A stretch of 64,000 nucleotides of DNA from Clostridia bacterium. GTDB taxonomy: Bacteria > Bacillota > Clostridia > Oscillospirales > CAG-272. Below, piece by piece: positions 10,646 to 58,264 of this stretch; position 1 is the first letter of the stretch, and every line of letters starts with the position of its first letter. The notes beneath the pieces are model-generated. The model worked only from the letters and a program-made list of their open reading frames with translations. It searched no databases and had not been told where the DNA came from. The translations under genes and the position numbers were made by a program. The DNA is taken from NCBI GenBank assembly GCA_017621475.1, contig JAGATA010000031.1, forward strand, positions 1,929 to 65,928, read 5' to 3'.

Positions 10646-10677
10646 TGCGATATATCTCCTAAATCAAAAATGTGCTT

Positions 10678-10705
10678 GTGCTTCTCCGCTTTCGCGGAGA
10701 AGCAC
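10678..10705 (-). terminator. Strong intercistronic hairpin (possible partial terminator or processing site) between the beta-helix gene and sipW-like gene 2
   Basis: GTGCTTCTCCGC-TTTC-GCGGAGAAGCAC, a perfect 12-bp stem. On the minus strand it is followed by AAGCACATTTTTGATTT, so the T-run is not immediately adjacent. Confidence 0.35.
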
Positions 10706-10721
10706 TCTGTTTGTCAAATTG

Positions 10722-14803: not shown

Positions 14804-14836
14804 ACCGAGCTCCTTTCGTGATGTATCAATAATTTA

Positions 14837-16411: not shown

Positions 16412-16445
16412 TGCCAAACTCCTCTTTGTTCTCTATCGGAGGCTC

Positions 16446-17300: not shown

Positions 17301-17361
17301 AACTCTCTCCTAAAAATTTTTATTATATATTTATTATGTTTTTCTCACATAAAAAATTTTC

Positions 17362-18378
17362 TTACTTAATTTCATCTTCTTCAAGGCCTGTATCGGGTTT
17401 TCTTTCGGCGTGGAATTGCACGTTTGCAAGCATCATTGCCTCTTTTCCGATTTCGTTGGTGCAGTCAACATCTTGACCTTCAAGCCAAATATATATATCT
17501 ATCTTTGCGGTGCAGTTTTTATCAAGGTCGAAAAGATGGTTGTCATCCAAAAATTCGCCGTAATCAAAAACCACAACTCCTTTTTGCACAGGATTTGTCT
17601 CCAACCAAGCGGTGGATTCCTGCCTTATAAGGCGGTCTGCGGGAACAAGACTTTCCGTGCCGTCCATACTCGGGGTCGGTTCATAATCAGTGGTATAATC
17701 GAGGTGGTTGTCACAGTTTGGCTCGTATATTATAAACAAGGGTTCTTCATCTATTTGTTTGCCATCCGGGTCGAAGCGCGTAACACGGAAACCAATTCTC
17801 ATTGCGCTTTGTGCGCCCTTGCCGCCGTTGTTGTGAATAATTTCTTCATCGTTCCAAACGGGCGTGCCGACAAGGTACGTGCCGGAATTTTCTATATTTT
17901 TGGAAAGCTCCACTTCAACGTCCTCGTCCGTGCGGGCATAAACGGTAAAAGCAACGTAATACCCTTCCGCATCCTCGCGGTTAGCGTTTTGAGCGTCGTT
18001 AAGCTCTTTGGAAATGGAAGCTATTCTGCCATCCAAACCGAAGTTTGTGGCGTAAAAGGTTTTGTTTATATCTGAATAAGTAACGGGTTTAAGCGTGGAA
18101 TTTTGCGTAAATTTTTTGTTATAGTCGAGGTGCCACCCCCAAGCTTCCTCGTCATCGGAAAGCTCCCAGGATATTTGCAAGCCGACGCTGCTGTTTACAA
18201 AAACAGCCATATCGTTTACTTTTGGAGTTTTACTCAAAGAAAACCAGGTGTATGTAGCGGTGGAGAGTAAAACAAGCAAAACAAGCATACCGTATAAAAG
18301 CTTTATAAATATGTGTCTGCGCTTTTTTTGTTTTGGTGTGGAAATTGCTTGTGAGCTCAATTTATTTTCTCCTTTCAT
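17362..18378 (-). CDS. Secreted TasA-like-motif protein, small paralog (338 aa); candidate minor fibre subunit
   Basis: N-terminus KKRRHIFIKLLYGMLVLLVLLSTATYTWFSLSKTPKV (SipW-cognate-like). C-terminal motif IDIYIWLEGQDVDCTNEIGKEAMMLANVQF. Internal block EGYYVAFTVYARTDEDVEVEL parallels ERYFAYTFYIRNDGASTVGY of the 348-aa protein. The RBS is weak. Confidence 0.55.
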   Translation of the reverse strand: MKGENKLSSQAISTPKQKKRRHIFIKLLYGMLVLLVLLSTATYTWFSLSKTPKVNDMAVFVNSSVGLQISWELSDDEEAWGWHLDYNKKFTQNSTLKPVTYSDINKTFYATNFGLDGRIASISKELNDAQNANREDAEGYYVAFTVYARTDEDVEVELSKNIENSGTYLVGTPVWNDEEIIHNNGGKGAQSAMRIGFRVTRFDPDGKQIDEEPLFIIYEPNCDNHLDYTTDYEPTPSMDGTESLVPADRLIRQESTAWLETNPVQKGVVVFDYGEFLDDNHLFDLDKNCTAKIDIYIWLEGQDVDCTNEIGKEAMMLANVQFHAERKPDTGLEEDEIK

Positions 18379-18452
18379 AGGGTTTTGCGGTGCACCGCCG
18401 TGTCGAGCAAAGACCTACACTCCAAATCAGCCTTTGCTCAAATTCGGTGTAT

Positions 18453-18484
18453 CCACCGCACAGGGCAAAAGCCCTGTGCGGTGG
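18453..18484 (-). terminator. Perfect 14-bp hairpin downstream of the 676-aa gene (possible attenuating terminator or RNA-stabilising element)
   Basis: CCACCGCACAGGGC-AAAA-GCCCTGTGCGGTGG, 75 nt after the stop at 18559. There is no clean U-tract on the minus strand (ATACACCGAATTT follows). Confidence 0.4.
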
Positions 18485-18558
18485 GTTATTGAACATTCAG
18501 TTGTTGCGATAACGCACATCTATGTATCACCGCATTTCTTGTTTAATCCGTGTAGGGA

Positions 18559-20589: not shown

Positions 20590-20639
20590 TTTTGATTTTT
20601 TCTCTCCTTTTCAAAGAAATTTTTTATTACAAATTTGCG

Positions 20640-20905
20640 GGGTCGGTGTTGGAGTGCGCCGCCTTCGCAAACAGTAAACTGTTTTAGGGACTTATTATCC
20701 CCTTTACCGCAAGGGAAAGGGGACTTTAACTAGTTAAAGTCCGAGTTTTGTATCTTTTCTCTTTCGCCTCCCTCCGGGAGGGAGGTGGCACGAGCCTTTG
20801 CGAGTGACGGAAGGAGAGCGCGTGAACATCAAATTTTCACAATACTTTGATGTCGCGCAGGCTTCTCCACCGCTTCGCGGAGCCCCCTCTCGGAGGGTGC
20901 CTTTT
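20640..20905. repeat. Intergenic array of GC-rich palindromes (same family as 3906-3978 and 4380-4700)
   Basis: CCCCTTTACC-GCAA-GGGAAAGGGG (20699-20722), a perfect 22-bp palindrome GGACTTTAACTAGTTAAAGTCC (20721-20742), CCTCCCT-N5-AGGGAGG (20767-20785), and CCCCCTC-TCG-GAGGGTG near 20883-20899. Confidence 0.75.
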
Positions 20906-20922
20906 TAGAAAAGAGGTTAAGA

Positions 20923-21969
20923 TCAATAATCTTCCTCGGTCACGAGCTTGAACGTGACTTCCACGCCAAGGTGTCCGCCGATAAGATCGTTTGTGCAATC
21001 GGGGTCGTTGCCTTCCAGCCACAGAACAACTGTGTATTTATGTACCTCCTGCGGTACTACGTCCGGCACCGTTCCCGATGTTATAACGAAGTCAGATTCA
21101 AAAGGTATGGGATAGAAATAATAAAGCGGTGCGGGGAGTTCCTCCTCTGTTTCCAGCTTTTTATACTGTTCTTCGGGGTATTTTGCGTTTTCATAGAAAG
21201 GACAGGTACGGAAACCCGTATATCTGCCTCTTTCTGCCGCCTCCGCCACGACCTGCGCGCTCGGAATGACTTCGGAACCTCCGTCATCGTCCGCGTGTGC
21301 ATAGAAAGTCATTTCGCCGTCGCGGAAAAGCATGACCCAAACCGCTTCGGAAAGGTCCTTACTTTCCGAGTTTATCGCGACCTGATAATCATAGCCAACG
21401 GTGGATGCACCGTCGTTTCTTATGTAGAAAGTGTAAGCAAAGTATCTCTCCCCGTTGTGGGAACCGTCTATCATATCAACGTTTGCGGGAATATCGGTAA
21501 ACGTGGTGTCAAGGGTTCCTTCCACGGGAATACTGTAGAGATATGAGGTAGGGTTATCGAACGTTTTCGTGTCGCTTATGGTAAAGCCCTCTCGGAAAAG
21601 CTCGTTCGTTGTGTTAATTGTGAAGTGTCCCCTCATTCTTGTGATAAGGGACATAAGGAAGAATGCCGTAAGCAGCGCCGCCAGCGCCCCAAGGAGCGCC
21701 CAAAGCCATTTTCCGCGCATAAGCCAAGGCAAAAATCCCAGGAATTTTCGCTTATCGAAGTACAAACCGAGGCTGGATGCGGTAAGCTCAAAATCCTTTT
21801 TGCTTTTTAAGCCTGCCGCGCGCATTTCGCGGCGAAGCTTTTTTCTGCCGGCTTTTATCTCCTGCACCTCATTTTCGGTGAGGACGACACCGGCACGCTT
21901 CTTTTTAAAAAGCCTTTTTTGTTTCTTCTCCGCCGCGGCAGCGGACGGAGTTTGCTCTTTCTTACTCAT
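20923..21969 (-). CDS. Type-II membrane protein with long basic cytoplasmic N-terminus and extracellular TasA-like-motif domain (348 aa); candidate anchor or base subunit
   Basis: ATG 21969 overlaps the stop of the upstream HD-GYP/EAL-like gene by 8 nt. Residues 1-85 are K/R-rich. TM WLWALLGALAALLTAFFLMSLI. C-terminal motif YTVVLWLEGNDPDCTNDLIGGHLGVEVTF is shared with the 338-, 676- and 1696-aa proteins. Confidence 0.55.
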   Translation of the reverse strand: MSKKEQTPSAAAAEKKQKRLFKKKRAGVVLTENEVQEIKAGRKKLRREMRAAGLKSKKDFELTASSLGLYFDKRKFLGFLPWLMRGKWLWALLGALAALLTAFFLMSLITRMRGHFTINTTNELFREGFTISDTKTFDNPTSYLYSIPVEGTLDTTFTDIPANVDMIDGSHNGERYFAYTFYIRNDGASTVGYDYQVAINSESKDLSEAVWVMLFRDGEMTFYAHADDDGGSEVIPSAQVVAEAAERGRYTGFRTCPFYENAKYPEEQYKKLETEEELPAPLYYFYPIPFESDFVITSGTVPDVVPQEVHKYTVVLWLEGNDPDCTNDLIGGHLGVEVTFKLVTEEDY

Positions 21970-24715: not shown

Positions 24716-27700
24716 TTATTTGTTTTCCAAATCGGAATCGTAAGAATTGTCATCCCAAGATGTGTACTTGATGGCAATCTTGTATGTATCGCCGACGTTA
24801 ATAGCGCCGTCACCATTGAGGTCTGCTGCGAGCAAACCTGCTGTATCAAGTGTCTTAACACCTGTGTAATGCTGAGCTATCGCGTATGCGTCACCGATGT
24901 TTGTAACGCCGTCTGCATTCGTGTCACCCATAATGATGACTGTGTACTCTGCTTCTACAGAGCCCTTTGCGTTGCTTGCAACAACTTTAACTTTGTCGCC
25001 GTTGCGGATAAGACCGTCTGTCTTTTCGTTGCCGTCTCTGCCAAGAACAGAAACAACTACTTTATCAGCACCGGGAGCGTTAAAGATGATGTGTGTTACG
25101 TCATCTACGGACCAGCCTGCGGGTGTGATGTCAACGAAGATAGTATCGTTTGCAACTTCCCAGCCGGCTACGATATCGGAGCTTACGCCGAGGTCGATAA
25201 CAGGTTCTTCGATAACGATGTCGCCTGCTTCGGAGAAGAGTGTGAGTTTGAGCGCGATGTCAACGTTGTAACCCTTTACGTTTTCGCGTGTGAAAGCATA
25301 TTCGTATTCCGTTCCGCTAACCTTGAGCGCGGAAAGCTTTGTTGCGGGGCCTGTGATATCGAGCTTTGTAAGAACAACGCCCGCGATATCGATAAGGTCG
25401 CCGTAAACCGCTTCGAGTTCAACAACGTCGGCGGATGTGAGGCCGAGCTTTGTAAGCATCGCTTCACAAGTTGTGGAAGAAAGTGCTTTAATAGCTGCAA
25501 CAAACTGCGCTGCTGTTACGTTGTCAATAGCAGCTGCGAGAGCCTCAATGTCGCCGTTTGCGCTTTCAAAATAAACAGTAAGAGCTTTTACAAGAGCATC
25601 TTTTGCAGTGCCTTCGGGCATAGCGTATGCAACAGCTGTACCGATGAGAGCTGCATAGTCGTGATTGGAGGAGAAATCAACTTCGATATCAGCGGAAGCG
25701 TCATATTCGAGGTCGAATCCGTCGTTGTAGTTAACGTCCGTTACGTTGATGTAAAGGTCGTTTACAGTAACTGTATTTGCAAGACCTTCACAAAGTTTTG
25801 CAAGTTCAGTCTTTTCATCTTCCGTACCTACAACAACTACGGAGATAGTGCCGGATGTTTCGATATTGGGAACAACATCAAGTGTGATGTAGCCGTTTTC
25901 AACTCTCAACGGAGAAAATTTCCAAGCTTTTATTGCGTAATCGTAGGAAGCAACGGATTCGCCTGCTTCGATAGCGGCTTTAAGAGCTTCAAAGTCGTAA
26001 ACGTCTGCAACAACTGTGTTGATGAAATTTGTAAGAGCAGGCCACTTGATGAAATCGAGCGCTGTGTTAGCAAGGTCTGTCTTTGTGCTTTCAAGATAGC
26101 TTACTGCATCCAAAACTTCGATACTGTAAACTGTTTCACCGCCGAGTGTCATTTCAGCGTTTGTGAACATATTGAGTGCTACGTCAAACGCAACGTCAAC
26201 GAGCATAGGTTTAAGATCTGGGAAGTTTGCTTTATTGAGGAAGTCTGCGGAAAGGTTGATCGTAATGTTGCCGTTTTCTTCTACTACTGTGTAAATAGCA
26301 TTGGAAACGTAGCCTGTTTCCGTTACTTCATAACCCTTGGGAAGCATTGTTGCAACGTCGCAAGAGTATTTTCCGCCTGTGATAACAAAGTTACCGGAGA
26401 GATTGCCGTTTACAGCGCCGCATTCTGTAGAAGCAAGGCTGTCAACGATTCTTACCTTACCGTTTGCTACCATATCACCGCTGATTGTTTTACCGTTGAG
26501 GTTGATAAATACATTGTTGTTGATAGTAACAGCTTTGTCGAAAACAACATCGGAGAGGAGAACCACTACCGCGTTATTGCCAAGACCTGCAAGAACTGTA
26601 TCAAGGTTATCTGTTACAAAGAATTTGTTCGTGATACCTTCTGCGCTGTAGTCAAATACGATAGCTTCGTATTCTTCATCAAGGCCGTTAACTCGGATGG
26701 AGAAGTCAACAACGAGGCCTTCGCTGTCTGCGCCTGCTTCAGCAATGAACTGGAGGAGAGCTTCGTCAAGGTTGAGAGAGAGGAGCTTATCGCGGATCTG
26801 TGCGCTTACAGAGCCTTCGTAATATGTGTTTTCGCCTTCAAGCTCAACTGTTGTGAGCAAGTAGTTAACAAGCTTACGAACGAGATTGAACATTTCGCCG
26901 TATTCGGAAAGGTCAACTGTCTGACCGAGCTTAGCGGACGTAGCTTCGATAGCGTCTACCGTGAAATCGGTATCAGCGAAGATATCTTTAATAAGAGAGA
27001 TCTCGTATGCAAGGTTATCCTTAACATTTGTATCTGTTACGTTTTCAAGATCTACTCTGCCTGTGATAGCCATCTGTGCAAGGTAGTATGCGTATGCAGC
27101 CTTGGGAACATTGATGGTCACGTTATATTTGCCGTTGCCGCACTGAACGTCAACGTAGGATTTAACGGATGTAACAGCATCATCAAGCTGTTTGAGAGTT
27201 TTAGCGTCGCCGCTCATTGTGATGTAAAGGTCATAAACATTTGTAACATCATCAAGAGCGAGCGTGGATGTAACGAGTTCTGCACCAACTGTGCTGCCGC
27301 CAGCGATAACTGTATATGCGCCGAGAGCCATAGGTTTAACGTTACCGTTTGCGTCGATAGCACCGGCAATCTTGTTAAAGCCGAAGTCGCTGTCTGCAAG
27401 AACATCGATAATCGTCTGGATGGAAACGGAAAGGCCGTTCCAGAATTCGTAGCCGCCGATGTAAACGTAATCAGCGCTTGCGATAGCTTGGGACATATTC
27501 TTAACAGCGGACATAAGAGCATCCTGACCTACCGTTGCAACGGAAGCGTCCATATTGAGAACGAGGACGATCTTACCTTCTGCATTTTCAAGTGCGGAGA
27601 AGGAGATACCAACGGACTTGAGTGCATCGTTAAGTGCTGTTGTGAAATTGATAAGGTCTTCGCGGGAAAGGATAACCTTTTCGCGTGTGATCTTAAATGT

Positions 27701-30700
27701 GTCGTTCACAAAGAGAGTTTTGAGTTCATCGGGTGTGAATGTAACACTTGTACCCTGTGCAGTTTCTTTGCCGTTTACCGTGTAAACGTATTTAGCACCG
27801 CTTTCCGTGCATACGGGAAGCTTAACTTCCGTCTTATCGGAATAGATAGTAACGGGGTCTTCGCCTTCAATCTCAACTGTGTAAGATTTAGGAGCGTATT
27901 TGATCGTAATGGTCATAGCACCCTTGAATTCGTCGCCCTCGGAGGGGATGGTGCCGTCAACCGTTACGTTGTAGAGATCTTTGTCTATTGTGAGCTTATT
28001 CTGAAGCGTTGTGATAAGAGCATTGATCTTATCAACGTCATTCTTTGTAAGCTTGCTGCCTACCGTGAAGGTAAGGCTGTCTGTTGCGGACTGACCGCCG
28101 AGAGGTTCGCCGTTGGAGCCGTAAGCCGCAACGTTTACAACGATTCTCTTCATACCGGAAACCATACCGCTTACGTATTCGATAAGCTGTGTGGAGTTAC
28201 CAAGGCCGTAATCCTTCGTTGTGCCCTTTGCAGCCGCGATAGCGGAAGCAAGCTTCTGAAGGTCATCAAGGCTTGCGTTTGTATCGATATAGGGATTTAT
28301 ATCAAGAGCGCTGAGCTGTGCCTTGTAGCTTGCAAATGTTTCGTCTATATCTGCGATCTTGTCAACGTAATCCTGAGCGTTACCGCCGATAAGGCTTGCG
28401 TTTGCAAGGATGAAATCGTCAAGATAATCGTCAGCGGCGATTATTTCGAAGTAATTTGCAAGAGCTTCGATCTCAGCCTTCAAATCCTGAGCGTTTGTAC
28501 CTGTGTAAAGGTAAGCAAGACCGCCGTTCTGGTAATCCGTAAGGGATTCGAGAATGTAGAAGCCGTTAGTGCCAAGGCATTCAAGCTTCATAGCAGCCGC
28601 AGCATCTTTTGTTTCCTGCTTGAACTGGTCTGTGTTTGCGATCAAGTTAAAGAGAGTACCTGCTATGTTGTTAAGAGTTGTAAGGTTGCTGTAAACCGTA
28701 CCGTTCTTGTTGGACAGAGGATCGAGAAGAGCCTTCTGTGCATTTGCTTCTGTTACGAGTGTGTGAGGAAGATTTGTGTAAGCATCCGTTTCACCTGTAG
28801 CAAACTCAAGCTTGTATGCAACCTTGATCTCGGTGATAGCACCTGTGTAATCAAAAGTTTTTTCCGTTGCGCCGTTGAATACGACCGTAACGCCTGTATC
28901 CTGTGTTCCGTTATAAACGTAACCGATATAAGGAACCCATTCGAGGTCGCCAAGACCGGAAGCAAGCTTCTTCGCGGATACCTTGTATGTATCTTCGTCA
29001 ACAGCAGTTACTTCAACGAGTTCTTCGTCAAGACCTACGGGTGTTCTGTAGTAGATTTTGTCGCTCTTGATAGCTGTGGAGTAAAGGATGGATTTTTCGC
29101 CTTCGCTGTATTCCGTTCCGGGGAAGTAGCTGTTAGCAATAACTTCGCGAAAGAAATAGCCTACAGTTGCCTTACCCTCTGTACGAGTGATAACTGTATC
29201 GCCTGTTACGCGGTATGTGATACCTTCGCGCATAGGCTCGCCATTTACCTTATAGTCGTAAGACTTGGAATTGTCATAGTTTTCCGCAGCGTATGTTCTG
29301 AGTGTCTGAACGTAGCCGTAAGGAACGCTCTCTACTGTGCCGCAGAAGTCAAGTTCGTAGTTAATGGGTACAAATGTTACTGTGCAAGTTACATCGCTTG
29401 TAAGCGCATCGCCAAGGCCCGCATAATCAACTATAATGTAATTGGTTTCGTTGATTTCGTAACCCTTAGTTGCTTCGTCAGCAGCCCAAGCAGCAATAGC
29501 GTCGGTAATAACGCCTGTTTCTTTGATACCTGCGATAACGTCAGCCTTTGTTGTATTTTTGTCAAGTGTAACGGTAACTGTTTCGGTAGAAACTACAGGT
29601 GTGAGAACTTTGCTGTCGGCAATGTCGCCTTTGACAACATTTGCCTGAACTTTAACAGTTACGTTGAACTGGTCAACACCCTGTTTGAGTGTTACAGAAC
29701 CTGCAGGATATTCAGACTGTTCTGCAAGTGTGCCGTCGTGAGAGATAGCACCGCCCTGTGCAAGTGCAACAACTGCATCATTAAGTGCAGAAAGCTCTGC
29801 CGGTGTAGCTGTATCTTTGATGAGGTCGTGGTTGATAAATTTCCAGTTAGAGGAATCAACAGCCACAGCACTCAACTTTTCACCAATATTTTCAAGGGTG
29901 CTGAAGCCGTTTTTGTACAACGCAGCCTCTGCCACGCCTAAAGTTCCCATACTTACAAGGAGATCAATCGAACCCATAATAGTTCTAAAGCCGGATTTTG
30001 CATCAACAAGAACTTCAATAATATCGCAAATTCTTTCAAAAGCTTCTTTTACTTTTGCGCCATTAGCGAGCATATACTCAACCTTGTTTTCGGCTGCATT
30101 ATATTCTGCAATAAGCTTAGATATTTCAAGCTTATTGCCGTTTGCAACGTATTCCGCATAGAGGTTGCCCATTGCTTCGCGAGTATCACCGGGAGCAAGG
30201 CTTACGTTGCCGGAGCCATATGAAATACCGGGTGTGTGCAATTTGTAAAGCTCGGGAATTGCAGTTTCAATAAGTTCGATGTCGCCCGCGAGTGCCGCAA
30301 CAGCATTCATATTAACGATACCGTTGGAAAGGTACATAGGAGCGTTAACAAGTGTCTGGAACAACTCGGATTCGATTGCAACAGAAACAACGTATGTAAC
30401 TTCGATACTGTAGTTGTTGGAATCGCATACGAAAGAGCCCTTGCCGTTTGCGTCAAGAGTTATATCCTTGTAAGTAGTTCCGTAAATCAACTGAACCTTT
30501 GCGGGTTTCCAAGTGTACCCGTCTTTTGTGAAGTTTTTAACTTCAACGGTTTTTTCTTCTTTGTTTATAATGATAAGATCTGCCCTATCATCATCTGTCG
30601 GAGCCGTTATCATGTGTTCGTTTCCGACGAGTGCCGTGCAATGCAAAACAGCTTTTTCGCCATCAGACAAAAAGTCGCCTGCATAATCGGCAATGATTTT

Positions 30701-30841
30701 CGCATCGGTGATACCCGATACAGAACCTGAGAGCGTAAGTATTCCATTGTTTCCGGACGCAAATACGCCTACGTTGATGCAACCGGCGAGGAGCGCGATC
30801 GACAAAACCATAGAAACTATACGCAAAATTGATTTTTTCAC
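24716..30841 (-). CDS. Giant (2041 aa) secreted protein or lipoprotein with C-terminal type-I dockerin
   Basis: AGGGGGAAAG RBS then GTG 30841. Signal peptide with a possible lipobox LLAG|C (alternative SPase I site VFA|SG). The C-terminal 70 aa (about nt 24719-24928) are a classical two-segment dockerin: GDTNADGVTNIGDAYAIAQHY...AADLNGDGAINVGDTYKIAIKY. The rest is Ala/Thr/Asp/Val-rich extracellular-type sequence. Confidence 0.8.
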   Translation of the reverse strand: MKKSILRIVSMVLSIALLAGCINVGVFASGNNGILTLSGSVSGITDAKIIADYAGDFLSDGEKAVLHCTALVGNEHMITAPTDDDRADLIIINKEEKTVEVKNFTKDGYTWKPAKVQLIYGTTYKDITLDANGKGSFVCDSNNYSIEVTYVVSVAIESELFQTLVNAPMYLSNGIVNMNAVAALAGDIELIETAIPELYKLHTPGISYGSGNVSLAPGDTREAMGNLYAEYVANGNKLEISKLIAEYNAAENKVEYMLANGAKVKEAFERICDIIEVLVDAKSGFRTIMGSIDLLVSMGTLGVAEAALYKNGFSTLENIGEKLSAVAVDSSNWKFINHDLIKDTATPAELSALNDAVVALAQGGAISHDGTLAEQSEYPAGSVTLKQGVDQFNVTVKVQANVVKGDIADSKVLTPVVSTETVTVTLDKNTTKADVIAGIKETGVITDAIAAWAADEATKGYEINETNYIIVDYAGLGDALTSDVTCTVTFVPINYELDFCGTVESVPYGYVQTLRTYAAENYDNSKSYDYKVNGEPMREGITYRVTGDTVITRTEGKATVGYFFREVIANSYFPGTEYSEGEKSILYSTAIKSDKIYYRTPVGLDEELVEVTAVDEDTYKVSAKKLASGLGDLEWVPYIGYVYNGTQDTGVTVVFNGATEKTFDYTGAITEIKVAYKLEFATGETDAYTNLPHTLVTEANAQKALLDPLSNKNGTVYSNLTTLNNIAGTLFNLIANTDQFKQETKDAAAAMKLECLGTNGFYILESLTDYQNGGLAYLYTGTNAQDLKAEIEALANYFEIIAADDYLDDFILANASLIGGNAQDYVDKIADIDETFASYKAQLSALDINPYIDTNASLDDLQKLASAIAAAKGTTKDYGLGNSTQLIEYVSGMVSGMKRIVVNVAAYGSNGEPLGGQSATDSLTFTVGSKLTKNDVDKINALITTLQNKLTIDKDLYNVTVDGTIPSEGDEFKGAMTITIKYAPKSYTVEIEGEDPVTIYSDKTEVKLPVCTESGAKYVYTVNGKETAQGTSVTFTPDELKTLFVNDTFKITREKVILSREDLINFTTALNDALKSVGISFSALENAEGKIVLVLNMDASVATVGQDALMSAVKNMSQAIASADYVYIGGYEFWNGLSVSIQTIIDVLADSDFGFNKIAGAIDANGNVKPMALGAYTVIAGGSTVGAELVTSTLALDDVTNVYDLYITMSGDAKTLKQLDDAVTSVKSYVDVQCGNGKYNVTINVPKAAYAYYLAQMAITGRVDLENVTDTNVKDNLAYEISLIKDIFADTDFTVDAIEATSAKLGQTVDLSEYGEMFNLVRKLVNYLLTTVELEGENTYYEGSVSAQIRDKLLSLNLDEALLQFIAEAGADSEGLVVDFSIRVNGLDEEYEAIVFDYSAEGITNKFFVTDNLDTVLAGLGNNAVVVLLSDVVFDKAVTINNNVFINLNGKTISGDMVANGKVRIVDSLASTECGAVNGNLSGNFVITGGKYSCDVATMLPKGYEVTETGYVSNAIYTVVEENGNITINLSADFLNKANFPDLKPMLVDVAFDVALNMFTNAEMTLGGETVYSIEVLDAVSYLESTKTDLANTALDFIKWPALTNFINTVVADVYDFEALKAAIEAGESVASYDYAIKAWKFSPLRVENGYITLDVVPNIETSGTISVVVVGTEDEKTELAKLCEGLANTVTVNDLYINVTDVNYNDGFDLEYDASADIEVDFSSNHDYAALIGTAVAYAMPEGTAKDALVKALTVYFESANGDIEALAAAIDNVTAAQFVAAIKALSSTTCEAMLTKLGLTSADVVELEAVYGDLIDIAGVVLTKLDITGPATKLSALKVSGTEYEYAFTRENVKGYNVDIALKLTLFSEAGDIVIEEPVIDLGVSSDIVAGWEVANDTIFVDITPAGWSVDDVTHIIFNAPGADKVVVSVLGRDGNEKTDGLIRNGDKVKVVASNAKGSVEAEYTVIIMGDTNADGVTNIGDAYAIAQHYTGVKTLDTAGLLAADLNGDGAINVGDTYKIAIKYTSWDDNSYDSDLENK

Positions 30842-48022: not shown

Positions 48023-49288
48023 ATGAAAACTATCCTTAAAAACGGAAACGTTTTTATGAACGGCGAACTTTGCGCCCTTGATATTCTTATCGAAGATTGC
48101 TGCATTAAAGAAATAGCTAATAATATTGACGACAAAAACGCGGAGATCATTGATGTTCGCGGTCTTGCCGTCTTTCCCGGTTTTTCGGATGTTCACGTGC
48201 ATCTTCGAGAACCGGGTTTTTTATCGAAAGAGACGGTCAAAACAGGAACGCTCGCGGCGGCACACGGCGGCTACACAACGGTATGCTCCATGCCCAACCT
48301 CGACCCCTGCCCCGACACGATGGAACATTTGCAAATTCAGCTCGACGCCATCAAGCGTGACGCTTGCATAAACGTAGTTCCTTATGGTACAATAACTATA
48401 GGGGAAAAAGGCGAAACTCTTTCTGAAATGGACGCAATGGCAAGCTCCGTTGCCGCTTTCTCCGATGACGGACGCGGCGTGCAGAACGACGATATGATGC
48501 TTTCCGCAATGGAAAAAGCAAAGAGCCTTGGCAAGCTTATCGCCGCGCATTGCGAAGATAACTCTCTTCTCTTCGGCGGCTACATTCACGACGGCGAATA
48601 TGCAAAAGCGCACGGACACCGCGGTATCTGCTCCGAAAGCGAATGGAAACAGGTTGAGCGCGACCTTGAGCTTGTGCGCAAGACCGGAGTTTCCTACCAC
48701 GTTTGCCACATTTCCGCAAAAGAAACTGTGGATCTTATAAGGAACGCTAAAAAAGAAGGGCTTGACGTAACGTGCGAAACGGGCCCCCATTACCTTACTA
48801 TGACAGATGCGGACCTGAGGGAACACGGCAGATTTAAAATGAACCCCCCGCTTCGTGCAGAGGAAGACAGAAAAGCGCTCCTTGCAGGACTTTTGGACGG
48901 CACGATCGATATGATAGCAACAGACCACGCTCCCCACACAGCGGAAGAAAAGAGCCGCGGGCTTGAAAAGAGCCCGATGGGCGTTGTAGGTCTTGAAACA
49001 GCGTTCCCTGTTCTCTATACGGAGCTTGTTAAAACAGGTATCGCACCGCTTTCTCTTATCATAGAGAAAATGAGCGAAAACCCCGCAAAGAGATTTTCCC
49101 TTGGCGGCGGCAAAATAGAAGTCGGCGCACGCGCAGACCTTTGCGTGTTCGACCTTGACAAAGAGTACATAATAGATTCTTCGGAATTTTTATCTATGGG
49201 AAAAGCGACCCCCTTTGAAGGCAAAAAAGTCTTCGGCCGCGCTAAAATGACAATTTTTGGAGGTAAAACAGTATGGCAGGAAAAATGA
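48023..49288 (+). CDS. pyrC: Dihydroorotase (421 aa)
   Basis: AGGAGG RBS then ATG 48023; the track start 47855 runs through the promoter and leader. Metal ligand motifs DVHVHLREPG, AFSDDG, AHCED, HVCHIS, ATDHAPH. Confidence 0.95.
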   Translation: MKTILKNGNVFMNGELCALDILIEDCCIKEIANNIDDKNAEIIDVRGLAVFPGFSDVHVHLREPGFLSKETVKTGTLAAAHGGYTTVCSMPNLDPCPDTMEHLQIQLDAIKRDACINVVPYGTITIGEKGETLSEMDAMASSVAAFSDDGRGVQNDDMMLSAMEKAKSLGKLIAAHCEDNSLLFGGYIHDGEYAKAHGHRGICSESEWKQVERDLELVRKTGVSYHVCHISAKETVDLIRNAKKEGLDVTCETGPHYLTMTDADLREHGRFKMNPPLRAEEDRKALLAGLLDGTIDMIATDHAPHTAEEKSRGLEKSPMGVVGLETAFPVLYTELVKTGIAPLSLIIEKMSENPAKRFSLGGGKIEVGARADLCVFDLDKEYIIDSSEFLSMGKATPFEGKKVFGRAKMTIFGGKTVWQEK

Positions 49289-50364
49289 ACAAAAAAATCG
49301 TGCTTGAAGACGGTTCCGAATTTTACGGATACGGTTTCGGCGCGCAGAGTACATCGCGCGTTTGCGAAATAGTCTTCGACACATCTATGGTAGGATACCA
49401 GGAGATCGTATCCAACCCCGTTTATGCGGGCGCGGCTGTCGTTATGACATATCCGCTTATCGGTAACTACGGTATCACGGACGAAGATTTCGAAGCAAAA
49501 ACAGCTTCTATCGGCGCTCTTATCGTAAGAGAATACAACGATTTCCCCTCCAACTTCAGATATACGAAAACTCTTTCCGAATACCTTGAAGAAAACGGCG
49601 TTCCCGGTATCTACGGTATGGACACAAGAGAGCTTACACGCAAGATCCGCGACGGGGGCACTTGTAAAGCTATCATAGTGGATGCAGACGTTCCCACAGC
49701 AGAATCAGTTGAAGCTATCAAAAACGATCGCGATGCAAAAAACCTTGTTGCACAGGTTTCTTGTGCTAAAAGATGGTATGCGCGCACGGCAAACGCAAAA
49801 TTCTCCGTTGTCGCTATCGACTGCGGTCTTAAACTCAGCACAGTACGCACGCTCAACGAAATGGGCTGCAACGTAACGGTTCTTCCCGCAACAAGCACAG
49901 CCTCCGACGTTGAGATGATGAAGCCCGACGGCGTGCTTATTTCCCAAGGTCCCGGCAACCCCGAAGATGTAAAAGACGTTATCGCTCTTGTAAAAGCGCT
50001 TGCCGGCAAATATCCTATGTTCGGTATCGGTCTTGGACACCAGATAATCGCTCTTGCTTACGGCGCAAAAACTTCCAAGATGAAGTTCGGCCACCACGGC
50101 TGCAACCACCCCGTCAAGACACTTGCAACAGGCAAGATGGAAACAGTTACACAGCATTACAACTACATTGTAGATGCAGACAGTGTGGACGGCACGGACC
50201 TTGAAGTAACTCACATCGATATCCTCGATAAAACGGTTGCAGGTCTTGCTTGTGCAAAAGACAAAGTATTCTCCGTTCAGTTTGAGCCCACAACAATGTC
50301 CGGCCCCGATGGAAGAAAGAATCTCTATGAACAGTTTATCGCTCTTATGAAGGAGGGCAAATAA
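49273..50364 (+). CDS. carA: Carbamoyl-phosphate synthase small subunit homolog lacking the glutaminase catalytic triad (363 aa)
   Basis: GGAGG RBS 9 nt before ATG 49273 (alternative ATG 49285 overlaps the pyrC stop). Clear CarA similarity throughout, but FGIGLGHQ replaces FGICLGHQ, and SVQFEPT replaces SFQGHPE. Confidence 0.85.
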
Positions 50365-50366
50365 TT

Positions 50367-53300
50367 ATGCCGAAGAGAACAGACTTAAAGAAAATACTTG
50401 TTATCGGTTCAGGTCCTATCATCATCGGTCAGGCTGCTGAATTCGACTATGCAGGCACACAGGCGTGCCTTGCTCTCAAAGAAGAAGGCTATGAAGTAGT
50501 CCTTGCAAACTCCAACCCCGCGACGATCATGACAGATACAACGATCGCGGACAAAATATATATGGAACCCTTGACGCTTGAATACGTTGCGAAGATCCTT
50601 CGCTATGAGCGCCCCGACGCTATCGTTCCCGGTATCGGCGGTCAGACGGGTCTTAACCTTGCTATGCAGCTTGAAAAGAAGGGCATCCTTCGCGAATGCG
50701 GAGTAGAGCTTCTCGGCACGAGCAGCGAATCCATTGAACGTGCGGAAGACCGCGAAGGCTTCAAAAAGCTTTGCGAAGATCTTGGCGAGCCCGTCCTCCC
50801 CTCTCTTATCGCGCATACGATCGAAGAAGGTCTTGCAGCCGCAGAAGAGATTGGCTACCCCGTAGTGCTTCGCCCCGCGTTCACGCTCGGCGGTACGGGC
50901 GGCGGCTTTGCGGACAACCCCGAAGAATGCACAGAGCTTCTTAAAAACGGTCTTAAACTCTCCCCCGTTTCCGAAGTCCTCGTTGAAAAGAGTATAAAAG
51001 GCTATAAAGAGATAGAATACGAGGTTATGCGCGACGCTAACGACACAGCCATCGCTATCTGTAATATGGAAAACGTGGATCCCGTCGGCATCCACACGGG
51101 CGACTCCATCGTTGTCTGCCCCACGCAGACTCTTACAAGCAAAGAATGCAATATGCTTAAAGAAAGTGCGCTCAAGATCATCCGCGCGCTCAAGGTAGAA
51201 GGCGGCTGTAACGTACAGTTTGCTCTCGATCCCCACTCCTTTGAATACTACCTTATCGAAGTTAACCCCCGCGTTTCCCGTTCCTCCGCGCTCGCATCCA
51301 AAGCCAGCGGCTATCCCATCGCAAGAGTTACGGCAAAGATCGCAGTAGGTATGACACTTGATGAGATCCAGCTTGCAAGCGCTCCCGCGGCTTGCGAACC
51401 CACGCTCGACTACGTTGTTGCAAAATTCCCCCGCTTCCCGTTCGATAAATTCGCGGCGGCAAACAACAAGCTTTCCACACAGATGAAAGCAACGGGTGAG
51501 GTTATGAGCCTTGGCAGAACTCTTGAAGAATGTATGCTCAAAGCAGTTCGTTCCCTTGAGATCGGCGTTTGCCATATGTACATGGCAAAATTCGACGAGT
51601 ACACGACGGATGCGCTTATGGACTACATTGCCATCGGCACGGACGACCGCATCTACGCTATTTCCGAGCTTCTCCGACGCGGCGTTGACATCAGCCTTAT
51701 CGCAAGCGCAACAAAGATCGATATGCTCTTCATTGAAAAGCTCAATAACATCGTTATTATGGAAAACGCTGTTAAGGCCGGAAAAGGTAATATCGAAGTT
51801 CTTAAAGACGCTAAAAAGATGGGCTTTTCCGATAAATATATCGCAAAACTTTGGAACTGCCCCGAAATCGATATTTATAATCTCCGCAAAGCAAACGGCA
51901 TTATTCCCGTTTACAAGATGATCGACACCTGCGGTGCGGAATTTGCAAGCTACGTTTCCTACTTCTACTCCACTTACGAAAACGAAAACGAATCCGTCGT
52001 ATCCGATAAGAAGAAGGTCATCGTTCTCGGCTCCGGTCCTATCCGTATCGGTCAGGGCGTAGAGTTCGACTATTCCTCCGTTCACGCTATCAAAACTATC
52101 AAAGCTTCCGGCTACGAAGCTATCATCATAAACAACAACCCCGAAACGGTTTCCACAGACTATACCTGCTCCGACAAGCTCTATTTCGAGCCTCTCACCG
52201 TAGAAGATGTTATGAACATCATCGATATGGAAAAACCGGACGGCGTTATCGCCTCCCTCGGCGGTCAGACAGCCATCAACCTTGCTGCTCCCCTTACGGA
52301 ACGCGGCGTTAAGATCATCGGTACGGACGCAGAAGCTCTTGACAGAGCAGAAAACCGCGATTCCTTTGAAAAGCTCCTCGAATCCCTCAACATTCCTCAG
52401 CCCAAGGGCAGAGCCGTTACAAAGATCGAAGACGGCGTTGCTGCTGCGGCAGAGATCGGATACCCCGTTCTCGTTCGTCCCTCCTTCGTTCTCGGCGGAC
52501 GCGCTATGCAGATCGTTGCAAACGAAGAAATGCTTCGCAATTACTTAAGAACAGCCGTTGAGATAGACGAAGACAAGCCCGTTCTTGTTGACAAATACAT
52601 CTCCGGCAGAGAAGTTGAGGTTGACGCAGTTTGCGACGGCGAAAACGTATTCGTTCCCGGTATTATGGAGCTTGTAGAGCGTACGGGCGTTCACTCCGGT
52701 GACTCCATCTCCGTTTACCCCTCCTTCACACTTTCCGATAAAGTTAAAGAAACTATCCTCGATTACACAAAACGCCTTGGTATCGGCATCGGTATCGTAG
52801 GTCTTTACAATATCCAATTCATCGTTGATAAATCCGAAAAGGTATATATCATCGAAGTTAACCCCCGTTCCTCCAGAACAGTTCCCTTCCTTTCCAAATC
52901 CACGGGTTATTCCCTTGCGGACATCGGTACTCTTGCAATACTCGGCAAGACACTTCCCGAACAGGGCATAACAACTATCTACCCCGAAGAAAAGAAACGC
53001 CACTACGTAAAAGTTCCCGCGTTCTCCTTCTCCAAGCTCCGCGGTCTTGACGCATACCTCTCCCCCGAAATGAAGTCCACAGGCGAAGCTATCGGTTATG
53101 ACGACAGCCTTAACCGCGCACTTTACAAAGCTCTCCAGGCTTCCGGTATGCAGGTTATGAACTACGGTACTGTATTTGCAACCATCGCAGATGCAGACAA
53201 GGAAGAAGCTCTTCCCCTCATCCGCCGCTTCTACAACATGGGCTTCAATATCGAAGCTACGGCAGGTACAGCCGCATTCCTCAAGGAACACGGCATCCGC

Positions 53301-53543
53301 ACAAGAGTTAAGAAGAAGATCAGCGAAGGCAGTGAAGAAATTCTCGATTCCATCCGTCAGGGCTACGTAACTTACGTTATCAACACAAGAAACCTTGACG
53401 CTTCCGGCACAACGTCCGACGGCTTCCAGATCCGTCAGTGCGCAACTGAAAACAACGTTTCCATCTTCACTTCTCTCGACACACTCAAAGTTCTCCTCGA
53501 CGTACTCGAAGAGCAGACGATCTGCATCTCCACGATCAACTGA
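50367..53543 (+). CDS. carB: Carbamoyl-phosphate synthase large subunit (1058 aa)
   Basis: Duplicated ATP-grasp halves ([24 protein letters not shown] and [24 protein letters not shown]), an oligomerisation domain and an MGS-like C-terminal domain. Confidence 0.97.
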
Positions 53544-53554
53544 AAGGACAGGAA

Positions 53555-54289
53555 ATGACAACAGAAAGCATTTTTACGATAATATCTAACGAAAAGATCG
53601 CAAAAAACACTTATAAAATGGTTCTCTCGGGCACAGCGGAAGGCTGTGCTCCGGGAAAATTCGTCAATATAAAAATTGACGGATTCTTCCTTCGCCGCCC
53701 CATATCCGTTTGCGATCAACAAGGCGATAAGCTCACCCTCGTTTATAAGGCTTTGGGCAAGGGCACAGAAAAAATGGCGGCTATGACAGCAGGCGAAAAG
53801 CTCAACATCCTCGCATATCTTGGCAACGGCTACGAACTTTCCAAAAGCGGAGATACCCCGCTTCTCATCGGCGGCGGCGTTGGCGTTCCTCCCCTCTATA
53901 TGTGCGCAAGAAAGCTTCGCGAAGAAGGAAAGAGTGTAACCGTTATCCTCGGCTTCAACACAGCGGAAGAAGTTTTCTATAAAGATGAATTTGAAGCCCT
54001 CGGTGCGCGCGTGCTCGTTGCTACGGCAGACGGAAGCGTTGGCACAAAAGGCTTTGTAACGGACGCTATGAAAGAAGTATCTACATACTCCTACTTCTAC
54101 ACCTGCGGTCCCGAACCCATGCTCAAAGCAGTTTATGGTGCAACGGCAACCTCCGGCGAGTTCAGCTTTGAAGAACGTATGGGCTGCGGCTTCGGCGCGT
54201 GCGTTGGCTGCACCTGCAAAACAAAATACGGCAACAAGCGCATCTGCAAAGACGGCCCCGTTCTTGTTAAGGAGGAGATCATATGGTAA
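53555..54289 (+). CDS. pyrK: Dihydroorotate dehydrogenase B electron-transfer subunit (244 aa)
   Basis: FAD/NAD-binding fold ([14 protein letters not shown]) and C-terminal 2Fe-2S motif [11 protein letters not shown]...C. Confidence 0.9.
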
Positions 54290-55194
54290 ACACAAAAGTT
54301 ACACTTTCAGGTGTTGAACTCGACAACCCCATTATCCCCGCCAGCGGCACTTTCGGCTTCGGCTATGAAATGGCAGAGTTCTATGATATAAACATTCTCG
54401 GCACGTTTTCCTTCAAGGGTACAACGGCAGAGCCCCGCTTCGGCAACCCCACACCCAGAATTGCGGAAACACCCTCCGGTATGCTCAACGCGGTTGGTCT
54501 TCAGAACCCCGGCGTTGACAAAGTTATTGCGGAAGAGCTTCCCAAGATGGAAAAGGTGTTCCACAAAAAAGTTATGGCAAATATCAGCGGTTTTTCCGTT
54601 AAGGAATACGCCGAAACAGCAGAAAAGCTCGACGCGGTTGACAGCGTCGGTCTTCTCGAAGTAAACATCAGCTGCCCCAATGTTCACGGCGGCGGTATCA
54701 GCTTCGGTACGGACGCAAATTCGGCTTATGAGGTTACAAAAGCCGTTAAAGCGGTAACCAAAAAGCCCGTTTATATGAAACTTTCCCCCAATGTAACAGA
54801 CATCACAGAGATCGCACGCGCATGCGAAGCCGCAGGCGCAGACGGCATTTCTCTTATCAACACACTTATGGGTATGCGAATCGATCTTCGCCGCAGAACT
54901 CCCATCATTAAAAACAAAACAGGCGGTCTTTCCGGTCCTGCCATCTTCCCCGTTGCGGTAAGAATGGTTTACCAGGTTTACGACGCAGTTAAAATTCCGA
55001 TCATCGGTATGGGCGGCGTACAGAGCGCGGAAGACGTTATAGAGCTTATGCTCGCGGGCGCAACAGCGGTTCAGGTAGGTGCTGCAAACCTTGTTTCCCC
55101 ATGCATCTGCCGCGACATCATCAACGATTTGCCCGCAACAATGGACAAATACGGTATAACAAATCTTACAGATATTATAGGAGGCGCACACTAA
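54283..55194 (+). CDS. pyrD: Dihydroorotate dehydrogenase B catalytic subunit (303 aa)
   Basis: Overlaps the pyrK stop. [25 protein letters not shown] (catalytic Cys, class 1), GGLSGPAI. Confidence 0.95.
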
Positions 55195-55892
55195 TGGGAA
55201 AAGACGTAATTATTGCTTGTGACTTTGACAGCGCGGAAAAAGTTTTCGCATTCCTTGATAAATTCACAGGCAGAAAACCCTTTGTAAAAATCGGCATGGA
55301 ACTTTATTATGCAGAAGGTCCTTCCATAGTTCGTGAGATCAAAAAGAGAGGTCACAAAATATTCCTCGACCTCAAGCTTCACGACATCCCCAACACAGTT
55401 AAAAAATCTATGGCGGTTCTCTCCCGCCTTGACGTTGATATGACTAACCTTCACGCTGCCGGCACAGGCCGCATGATGGAAGCAGCTATCGAAGGTCTTA
55501 CACGCGAAGACGGCACACGTCCCATGCTCATCGCCGTAACACAGCTCACATCCACAGACGAAGAAACAATGAAGAAAGACCTTCTCATTGACAAGCCCAT
55601 CGCAGACGTTGTTATGCATTACGCTCACAACGCAAAGGTTGCAGGTCTTGACGGCGTTGTTTGCTCTCCCCTTGAAGCAGGCAAGGTTCACGAAACTTGC
55701 GGCGCAGGCTTTGTAACGGTTACACCCGGCGTTCGCTTTGCAGACGGCGACATCGGCGACCAGAAGCGCGTTATGACACCCGCAGAAGCTAAGAAGATCG
55801 GCTCCGACTACATCGTTGTCGGCAGACCCATCACAGCAGCGGAAGATCCCGTTGCCGCATACGAAAGATGCGTTGCCGAATTTATTGACTAA
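55194..55892 (+). CDS. pyrF: Orotidine 5'-phosphate decarboxylase (232 aa)
   Basis: GGAGG RBS. ATG 55194 shares a base with the pyrD TAA (TAATG). Motifs [23 protein letters not shown]. Confidence 0.95.
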
Positions 55893-56457: not shown

Positions 56458-57114
56458 ATGGAATCTTACAAAAGAGAGTTTATACAGTTTCTTGAAAGCG
56501 CAGGCGTTCTCAAATTCGGCGATTTTACTGCAAAAAGTGGCAGAAAGATCCCTTATTTCGTAAACGCAGGCGAAATTAAAACAGGAGAACAGATCGCAAA
56601 GCTCGGCGAATTCTACGCAAAGAGCTACCTTGAAAAAGTAGGCAATAAAAAAACAGTCCTCTACGGACCTGCATATAAAGGCATTTCCATCGCCGTTTCT
56701 TCCTCCATCGCTCTTGCAAAAAGCGGTCTTGACGTTCCCTTCTTCTTCAACAGAAAAGAAGCTAAGGACCACGGCGAAGGCGGTATTTTCGTAGGCTACG
56801 TTCCGAAGGCAGGCGAAGAGATCGTTATCGTTGAAGACGTTATCACAGCAGGCACAGCTATCCGCGAAAGCATGGAAAACCTTTCCGCACTCGAAGGCAC
56901 AAAGGTTGCCGCTACATTCGTTATGGTTGACCGCAAGGAAGTTGGCAAGGGCGGCGTAAAATCCGCTATGGCAGAGATCGCAGACGAATTCGGTTTCCCC
57001 GTTTACTCCGTTGTTGACGTTTACGACATCATCGAATACCTCGAAGAAGACGAAAAGAACGCTGAAAACGTTACTCGCATCAAAAACTACCTCGCTATCA
57101 ACGGCGCAAAATAA
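56458..57114 (+). CDS. pyrE: Orotate phosphoribosyltransferase (218 aa)
   Basis: AAGGAGA RBS then ATG 56458; the track start 56389 lies in the repeat. GDFT..SGR...YF.N, and PRPP loop VIVEDVITAGTA. Confidence 0.93.
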   Translation: MESYKREFIQFLESAGVLKFGDFTAKSGRKIPYFVNAGEIKTGEQIAKLGEFYAKSYLEKVGNKKTVLYGPAYKGISIAVSSSIALAKSGLDVPFFFNRKEAKDHGEGGIFVGYVPKAGEEIVIVEDVITAGTAIRESMENLSALEGTKVAATFVMVDRKEVGKGGVKSAMAEIADEFGFPVYSVVDVYDIIEYLEEDEKNAENVTRIKNYLAINGAK

Positions 57115-57181: not shown

Positions 57182-58264
57182 ATGAGAAGCCTTATAGATA
57201 TTCTTGATCTTTCTCTTGAAGAGATAGATTCACTTATAGCAACTGCATCCGACATTAAGAAAAATCCCGCAAAATATGCGGATAAATGCCGCGGCAAAAA
57301 GCTTGCAACACTCTTTTTCGAGCCTTCCACAAGAACAAGACTTAGCTTTGAAGCCGCTATGTACGAGCTCGGCGGCAACGTCCTCGGTTTTTCGGAGGCA
57401 AACTCCTCCTCTGCCTCAAAGGGCGAAAGTATGGCAGACACGGCAAAAGTCGTAAGCGGATATGCAGACATTATGGCGATCCGCCACCCTAAAGAGGGTG
57501 CGCCACTTGTAGCCGCTAAAAATGCTTACGTTCCGATCATCAACGCGGGCGATGGCGGTCACAACCACCCCACGCAGACCCTTGCAGACCTCTGCACGAT
57601 CAAAAACGAAAAAGGCAGACTTACAGACCTTACGGTTGGTTTCTGCGGTGACCTTAAATTCGGCAGGACGGTTCACTCTCTTCTTGCCGCTCTCTCCCGT
57701 TATACGGGCATCAAGGTCGTGCTCATCTCCCCCAAGGAGCTTCGCATCCCCAGCTACGTTAAACACGAGACAATCGGCAGATCCGGTATGGAATATATTG
57801 AAACGGAAAGCCTTGAAGAAGCACTCCCCCAGCTCGACGTTCTCTATATGACGCGCATTCAGAAGGAGCGTTTCTCCTACGTTGAAGATTATGAACGCCT
57901 TAAAGACAGCTACATACTCTCCGTAGATAAGCTCGCGTGCGCGAAAGACGATCTTTGCATTATGCATCCGCTTCCCCGCGTAAACGAAATTTCCGTTGCG
58001 GTTGATAACGACCACCGCGCGCGCTACTTCGAGCAAACGCTCTACGGCAAATATATGCGTATGGCTCTCATCCTCTTCCTGCTTGACGAAAAACAAAAAA
58101 ACGCAGGCGAACGCGAAGAAAAATACCGCCTTGTTCACAATAAAGTTTGCGTAAATCCCAACTGCATCACATCCACAGAGCAGGAACTTCCCCAGATATT
58201 CCGCTGTGTAAACGAAGAAGAAAGCGTTTACCGTTGCATCTGGTGCGAAAGCCGTGCGAAATAA
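57182..58264 (+). CDS. pyrB: Aspartate carbamoyltransferase catalytic chain fused to a PyrI-type zinc domain (360 aa)
   Basis: ACGGAGA RBS then ATG 57182. PyrB motifs STRTR, HPTQ, HPLPRV over ~304 aa. Then a 56-aa tail with CVNPNCITS...YRCIWCE, the four-Cys zinc domain of the regulatory chain. No separate pyrI follows. Confidence 0.85.
   Translation: MRSLIDILDLSLEEIDSLIATASDIKKNPAKYADKCRGKKLATLFFEPSTRTRLSFEAAMYELGGNVLGFSEANSSSASKGESMADTAKVVSGYADIMAIRHPKEGAPLVAAKNAYVPIINAGDGGHNHPTQTLADLCTIKNEKGRLTDLTVGFCGDLKFGRTVHSLLAALSRYTGIKVVLISPKELRIPSYVKHETIGRSGMEYIETESLEEALPQLDVLYMTRIQKERFSYVEDYERLKDSYILSVDKLACAKDDLCIMHPLPRVNEISVAVDNDHRARYFEQTLYGKYMRMALILFLLDEKQKNAGEREEKYRLVHNKVCVNPNCITSTEQELPQIFRCVNEEESVYRCIWCESRAK

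Follow-up and report, generated by a model that had tools for sequence, protein, structure and literature searches.

We report here on a 64,000-nucleotide stretch of a Clostridia bacterium contig (JAGATA010000031.1; the whole stretch is called the window hereafter) and on its carA gene (49273-50364; coordinates are on the plus strand unless stated otherwise), a 363-residue open reading frame (ORF) encoding an orthologue of the carbamoyl-phosphate synthase (CPS) small subunit. The nucleophile, the base and the acid of its glutaminase domain are all replaced, and the domain is predicted to be catalytically dead. We propose, with a probability of about 0.7, that the CarAB pair encoded here would be an ammonia-dependent CPS with a pseudo-amidotransferase subunit, the small subunit having been kept as the partner of an intact CarB.

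The window CarA was aligned by phmmer to the E. coli CarA structures 1c30_B and 1bxr_B (E about 3e-72), and the motif regions were free of gaps: FGIGLGHQ stands opposite FGICLGHQ, and E. coli SFQGHPEASPGP likewise has a gap-free counterpart in the window protein. At the position of the nucleophile, E. coli Cys269, the window protein has Gly253 (codon GGT, 50029-50031). E. coli His353-Pro-Glu355 corresponds to Glu338-Pro-Thr340 (GAG CCC ACA, 50284-50292), the base being replaced by Glu338 (GAG, 50284-50286) and the acid by Thr340 (ACA, 50290-50292). The first-pass annotation, made by eye from the sequence, had already read the triad as Gly/Glu/Thr and the glutamine-binding motif QNHGF as QHYNY; the formal alignment holds the same register, the codons agree, and QHYNY is indeed found opposite E. 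coli residues 310-314 (50152-50166). In this motif, the glutamine-binding residues N311, H312 and G313 have become H295, Y296 and N297, and glutamine-binding Ser47 is Val50 (49420-49422, codon checked). The glutamine-binding set S47/Q273/N311/H312/G313 therefore reads V/Q/H/Y/N, with Q273 the sole residue kept. The oxyanion-hole backbone positions G241 and L270 are retained as G226 and L254; both belong to the backbone, and catalysis is not restored by them. S47, K202, Q273, H312 and G359 are invariant in 85 of 85 canonical representatives, a set that has C269, H353 and E355 by definition. Since S47, Q273 and H312 do not vary in this set, the combined triad and pocket pattern of the window protein lies far beyond chance. 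Judged from its sequence, this protein lacks the triad that marks a glutamine-hydrolysing CPS small subunit (EC 6.3.5.5).

In all other respects the ORF is recognisable as CarA by descent: it is full length, has both domains, passes the family model and has a carB partner. The N-terminal CPSase_sm_chain domain, which is fully conserved, covers residues 9-135 (49297-49677; PF00988, 5e-46) and the class-I glutamine amidotransferase (GATase) fold, without nucleophile, base or acid, covers residues 181-357 (49813-50343; PF00117, 2e-38); the score against TIGR01368, the NCBI equivalog model for CarA, is 406.6 bits for a cut-off of 307. The gene has a ribosome-binding site (GGAGG) 9 nucleotides upstream of its start and overlaps the end of pyrC by 16 nucleotides. 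The gene for the large (synthetase) subunit, carB (50367-53543, 1058 residues), starts 2 nucleotides past carA and is intact (1466 bits to NF003671, all Pfam domains, E = 0 to E. coli CarB, 1bxr_A); carA and carB are adjacent in the same way in all relatives examined. The operon is complete, in the order pyrC-carA-carB-pyrK-pyrD-pyrF-pyrE-pyrB. Domain scores and operon layout thus agree with the initial description of carB as intact and of carA as lying in its normal operon position.

The sequence is also genuine. Fourteen contigs, which come from several ruminant-gut samples and were built by several assemblers, encode exactly the window CarA protein, and in Logan contigs of three runs, at 12-19x depth, carA shows 0 differences. 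Of the 24 single-nucleotide polymorphisms (SNPs) that a strain variant from sheep gut has in carA, none falls in the triad codons. A sequencing error had been discounted at first sight, and the 14 contigs and three runs bear this out; the guess that the host is a gut or rumen anaerobe likewise fits the source samples, which are ruminant gut. Moreover, a bovine metatranscriptome run yielded contigs of at least 95% identity over most of the operon, including carA. The pyr operon with its dead carA thus appears to be transcribed, with DNA carry-over as the usual caveat.

Loss of Cys269 is old and clade-wide. The 120 closest 90%-identity clusters are 57-96% identical to the window CarA; 37 of them have the canonical C-H-E triad and 83 lack Cys269, with Gly or Ala in its place. 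Related taxa thus carry the same and further substitutions, the outcome of the orthologue survey that the first-pass annotation suggested. The Cys-less states include G-H-D (26 clusters), G-H-E (11), G-D-N (12), G-E-N (11) and the window type, G-E-T (9). In a neighbour-joining tree, the Cys-less proteins form essentially one clade, sister to a canonical C-H-E clade; the exception is a small nested C-Q-E pair, in which His was lost first. In the same tree several subclades have lost His353 on their own, with E/D, N, Y or Q in its place, and there are nested independent losses of Glu too. The operon is the same in the canonical sister P0085 and in the degraded forms P0034, P0020, P0111 and P0074; dead and canonical carA are therefore positional orthologues, not paralogues. 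Forty-four clusters are intermediate forms (G-H-D, G-H-E and similar; P0034, at L087:10001-11089, is one) that lack the nucleophile only, and they keep S47, Q273, N311, H312 and H353 almost invariantly over considerable divergence, as though their glutamine pocket were under selection even now. All named close relatives examined are annotated as "glutamine-hydrolyzing", following the naming of the NCBI pipeline.

A wider sample was taken from 1.8 billion representatives as the 150 nearest 50%-identity clusters, of which 134 were full-length with all triad positions aligned. Forty-nine of these 134 proteins lack Cys269, in many different triad states, and parsimony on a rough tree requires at least 11 changes of state; loss of Cys269 is thus recurrent, on a tree that is crude and a sample that is biased towards the query. 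Labelled examples of Cys-less CarA, which recurs in other gut anaerobes, come from metagenome-assembled genomes (MAGs) of Oscillospiraceae/Ruminococcaceae and Clostridia, from a Congzhengia MAG (triad A-N-E), from a Sporomusaceae MAG (G-L-E) and from a probable Bacteroidales contig, L095 (G-H-E, dead carA at L095:10001-11083). In three further independent dead-carA lineages the genes are intact and adjoin carB. A canonical CarA/CarB background came from a scan of genome contigs whose matches, dominated by the conserved pattern KMKFGHHG, were mostly Proteobacteria, the best being the Congzhengia MAG (56%). In Phascolarctobacterium MAGs (L009:4098-5132, L023:495-1529) the nucleophile Cys is kept (LGICMGH) and the His-Pro-Glu motif is absent (VQFLPDGEH); judging by these motifs, the triad of this Negativicute has decayed in another way.

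The dead domain has remained under selection. For relatives of 96%, 88%, about 75% and about 67% identity, codon comparison of the GATase domain gave ratios of non-synonymous to synonymous substitution rates (dN/dS) of 0.21, 0.09, 0.14 and 0.17, respectively; the N-terminal domain had 0-0.13 (dN = 0 against the 96% relative) and carB 0.02-0.10. For the strain SNPs in carA, dN/dS was 0.27 overall, with the changes concentrated in the linker between the domains. The divergence of the GATase domain relative to the N-terminal domain is about 1.3-1.8 in Cys-less proteins compared with about 0.8-1.1 in canonical relatives (the latter taken over well-populated divergence bins). At a threshold of at least 95% conservation, 57 of 187 GATase-domain positions are conserved in Cys-less proteins versus 101 of 187 in canonical relatives, and for the N-domain the count is 72 of 138 positions in either clade, dead or canonical. 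The positions that have been freed lie clustered around the old active site and where the tunnel begins (S47, K202, N240, C269, G293, T308, A309, H353, E355-P358). Four elements are still fixed in Cys-less CarAs: the GPG loop, the G-x-G-L-G elbow, the GH-G-NHP loop and the C-terminal helix. An AlphaFold (AF2) model of the window CarA reached a predicted local distance difference test score (pLDDT) of 86 and a predicted template-modelling score (pTM) of 0.88. The predicted fold has 1c30_B as its best structural match, with a template-modelling score of 0.88 to E. coli CarA and of about 0.84 to the N-terminal moiety of human CPS1. Purifying selection together with an intact predicted fold indicates that the chemistry has been lost and a structural role kept, in line with the initial suggestion that the subunit is retained for structural reasons.

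What such an enzyme would do can be outlined from known CPSs. Cys269 and His353 are essential for glutamine hydrolysis in E. coli, and CarB, which contains the synthetase sites, by itself makes carbamoyl phosphate from ammonia (PMC6245113, PMC8121099). With nucleophile, base, acid and four glutamine-binding residues dismantled, the window CarAB would be unable to take nitrogen from glutamine, and carbamoyl phosphate would then have to come from free NH3 reacting with carboxyphosphate in CarB. Ammonia might enter via the emptied glutamine pocket and the old tunnel; alternatively, it might come in from the side, where the subunits meet, a route that has been proposed for human CPS1. As in vertebrate CPS I, the small subunit might be kept because CarB needs it to fold, to be stable or to be shaped allosterically. 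An ammonia-rich rumen or hindgut would make the use of ammonia affordable, and the ATP of glutamine synthesis would be saved.

Several points weigh against this proposal. E. coli CPS takes ammonia only at very high, probably unphysiological, concentrations (PMC6245113), so that the window enzyme would have to bind NH3 better or else work in a cytoplasm very rich in ammonia, and the sequence comparison of the window CarA and CarB identified no convincing adaptive change that would raise the affinity. If CarB suffices with ammonia, the strong conservation of the dead subunit implies a further role. In addition, a second canonical carA or carAB may lie beyond the DNA searched (the window and 100 related loci), and Bacteroides thetaiotaomicron, a gut anaerobe, has been proposed to run two CPS systems (PMC8121099).

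Candidate adaptations were considered in both subunits. The gate of the ammonia tunnel in E. coli CarB is formed by C232/A251/A314 (PMC8674909); here it reads C232/C251/A313 by sequence comparison, Cys251 being encoded at 51117-51119, and a second Cys stands at Tyr261 (51147-51149). Both changes are common to the dead-CarA clade of the window and absent from the canonical sister; A251C was present in all 7 members of the window clade examined, and position 251 is Ala in 63 of 64 canonical CarBs. As a general result of CarA death, A251C was rejected: Ala251 is kept in the dead-CarA lineages L001, L095, L098, L099 and L100, which makes the change one lineage event. Nor is Y261C shared by five other dead-CarA lineages. 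The CarB changes, like the Cys gain at tunnel position 293 of CarA, count as leads only. In CarA, position 353 is D or E in 31 of 37 close relatives that lack both Cys269 and His353. An ammonium-recruiting acidic site at 353 was nevertheless discarded, as the wider sample has Y, N, Q, V and others there and nothing general emerges.

An independent dead-CarA lineage, L100, has argC-argJ-argB-argD-argF directly upstream of pyrB-pyrC-carA-carB-pyrK-pyrD-pyrF-pyrE (L100:428-15060), its carA having the triad state G-Y-D. A single carAB is visible at this locus. Since this sole carAB is flanked by both sets of genes, one CPS may feed the arginine and pyrimidine pathways in L100, and the gene order suggests that the dead-CarA enzyme serves both.

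Other explanations of the dead carA have to be weighed. That it reflects a sequencing or assembly error, or a decaying pseudogene, is already refuted: 14 contigs and 3 runs agree, the frame is intact with dN/dS of 0.09-0.27, the trait is conserved clade-wide and the operon appears to be transcribed. It is unlikely, though worth serious consideration, that two systems exist, a canonical carA or carAB elsewhere in the genome and the operon described here as a high-ammonium specialist; in a variant, CarB would borrow the canonical CarA, and the dead CarA would be a competitor or regulator. Bacilli have two CPSs, which counts for this explanation. So do fitness data from B. thetaiotaomicron, in which the canonical CarAB is associated with low ammonium and an ammonium-dependent CarB2 with high ammonium (PMC8121099). 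However, neither the 64-kb window nor any of 100 related loci (about 20 kb each) contains a second CarA-like region, and the dead carA occupies the exact slot of the canonical carA in the sister clade. In L100, moreover, the sole visible carAB adjoins the arg cluster, at the place that an arg-specific carAB would take in Bacillus-type genomes. Two coexisting systems would still imply ammonia use by the enzyme encoded here.

The remaining alternatives concern the dead domain itself. It might act as a ligand sensor, binding glutamine or another small molecule and tuning CarB allosterically. The almost invariant S47, Q273, N311, H312 and H353 of the 44 nucleophile-less intermediate clusters would fit such a role, and Mullins et al. 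reportedly found in 1991 that E. coli C269 mutants still bind glutamine, with altered ATPase activity. In the window protein, however, the pocket is degraded (V50, H295, Y296, N297, E338, T340) and glutamine binding is therefore unlikely; we regard a sensor as improbable here, and the idea may apply to the intermediate G-H-D/G-H-E forms. Very improbable, too, is a glutaminase surviving through a relocated nucleophile, for example Cys277 (TGC, 50101-50103), a clade-specific gain that corresponds to E. coli tunnel residue Gly293. Position 293, close to the old site, is where the tunnel begins (PMC4655335); 61 of 81 Cys269-less relatives have Cys there, against none of the 36 sister canonical proteins, which all have Gly. 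Against this, the dead clade does not always have Cys at 293 (G, A, T or S may stand there instead); this Cys persists after the loss of His353 and Glu355 and is also found in 5 of 85 canonical CarAs that have Cys269; base, acid and four glutamine-binding residues are all gone in the window protein. Residues invariant in the 85 canonical CarAs have decayed in the Cys-less proteins of the wide set (S47 is left in 13 of 49, Q273 in 25 of 49 and G359 in 26 of 49), so a relocated active site is disfavoured. G293C was likewise dropped as a CPS1-like tunnel plug or relocated nucleophile, since position 293 is variable in wider canonical CarAs (G 32, A 19, S 12, V 7, C 5) and not diagnostic. Pro358 is replaced by Ser in parallel with the Cys gain at 293 in the clade without Cys269.

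An ammonia-dependent CarAB with a dead small subunit can be compared with several known systems. Vertebrate CPS1 is ammonia-specific, has Ser (Ser294) at the Cys position and a blocked ancestral tunnel, and a side entrance for ammonia has been proposed (PMC4655335). Like the window CarA, human CPS1 (PDB 5dou/5dot) retains an inactive glutaminase-like domain with its nucleophile replaced; it also has Gln318, which blocks the old tunnel, at the position of E. coli tunnel Gly293 (PMC4655335), where the window protein has Cys277. However, human CPS1 is one fused chain of 1500 residues that needs N-acetylglutamate and keeps His and Glu, whereas the window system consists of two separate genes with the whole triad gone. 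By phmmer, the window CarA matches E. coli CarA better (E = 3e-72) than it does CPS1 (E = 9e-52), which argues for an origin independent of CPS1. The window enzyme would thus work like CPS I while standing outside the CPS I family (EC 6.3.4.16).

Closer in fold are the E. coli CarA mutants (the C269S structure 1c30; C269G/S, H353N), which are changed at the same positions as the window CarA. Loss of Cys269 or His353 in E. coli abolishes the use of glutamine and leaves ammonia-dependent synthesis by CarB in place (PMC6245113). These are laboratory point mutants, in contrast to the window CarA, which is natural, fixed in its clade, multiply substituted and under purifying selection. B. thetaiotaomicron CarB2 (BT3866) shares with the window system a gut anaerobe as host, and its production of carbamoyl phosphate from ammonium has been proposed from fitness data (PMC8121099); it has no small subunit and coexists with a canonical CarAB, whereas in the window system the dead carA is conserved next to carB. 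The archaeal CPSs (the Pyrococcus carbamate-kinase-like enzyme and the minimal CPS of Methanobrevibacter smithii) are also prokaryotic and ammonia-fed (cited in PMC6245113, PMC8121099), but they are different proteins with other architectures and have no CarA-like subunit.

Glutamine has been stated to be the nitrogen donor of all bacterial CPSs (PMC6245113, 2018; PMC8121099, 2021), and the confirmation of any bacterial ammonium-dependent CPS has been called an important open step (PMC8121099). Our literature searches turned up no report of a bacterial CarA that naturally lacks the triad. It is tempting to go further and to see in the dead-glutaminase CarA a widespread, repeatedly evolved class of bacterial ammonia-dependent CPS, part of a broader rewiring of amidotransferases to the use of free ammonia in ammonia-rich guts, with Oscillospiraceae-like rumen Clostridia, Congzhengia, the Sporomusaceae MAG and the probable Bacteroidales contig as its lineages; we hold this tentatively, at a little less than even odds. 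If it were true, the view that all bacterial CPSs depend on glutamine would be overturned, and many "glutamine-hydrolyzing" names in databases would be wrong. Because the NCBI pipeline gives this name to these CarAs, metabolic models of rumen and gut Clostridia probably carry the wrong nitrogen source and ATP cost for the synthesis of pyrimidines and possibly of arginine. As a test case the window operon is clean and expressible: it encodes a natural CarAB with a small subunit that is predicted to be unable to hydrolyse glutamine. The dead CarA is also a natural experiment on the non-catalytic role of the small subunit, and it would have evolved in parallel to, and independently of, vertebrate CPS I.

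On the same contig as the dead carA of L095, a PurF (L095:1891-3252, minus strand; TIGR01134, 451 bits) starts MGLLGVYG. The initiator Met stands where the Cys1 nucleophile would be, and 9 nucleotides upstream there is an in-frame TAA. All 120 of its 120 closest homologues (80-100% identical, some with Bacteroidales MAG labels) start MG[VLI]L[AG]V, without Cys1; PurL, encoded in the same operon, keeps its Cys/His/Glu. These features suggest that the L095 PurF is ammonia-dependent. Taken with the CarA of the same contig, some gut anaerobes seem to have more than one amidotransferase switched to ammonia.

The other genes of the window operon are as follows. The dihydroorotase gene pyrC (48023-49288, 421 residues, Amidohydro_1/DHOase domains) was called on the identical contig L081. 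Its leader contains a candidate PyrR-binding attenuator-like RNA (RF00515, 47878-48002), which covers the full model (1-115) with 47.8 bits, below the gathering score of 54 (E = 2.6e-5); an Rfam scan of the whole window at gathering scores gave no match. Downstream of carB follow pyrK (53555-54289) and the class 1B pyrD (54283-55194), pyrF (55194-55892, coordinates transferred from L081), pyrE (56458-57114, gene call on the identical contig) and pyrB (57182-58264). The last of these carries a short C-terminal remnant of the PyrI zinc domain (PF02748, residues 380-415 of the long ORF), which is common to the relatives; no separate pyrI gene was seen.

Elsewhere in the window, a BspA-type leucine-rich repeat protein is encoded at 2102-3889. 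Nine consecutive large ORFs (1696, 252, 757, 603, 526, 284, 338, 676 and 348 residues) occupy 4800-21969 on the minus strand, and none of them has a Pfam match at E <= 1e-5. The 2041-residue protein at 24716-30841 (minus strand) has a C-terminal type-I dockerin as its sole Pfam match, a pointer to a surface system of the cellulosome type. All along the window, at a GC content of only 46%, there are very long antisense ORFs (up to 1690 residues), for example at 24869-29941 (plus) opposite 24716-30841 (minus) and at 50409-52085 (minus) opposite carB. They arise because the codons TTA, CTA and TCA are almost wholly avoided: carA, carB, pyrC and the 2041-codon gene contain 1-4 of them each, and the 1696-codon gene about 20.

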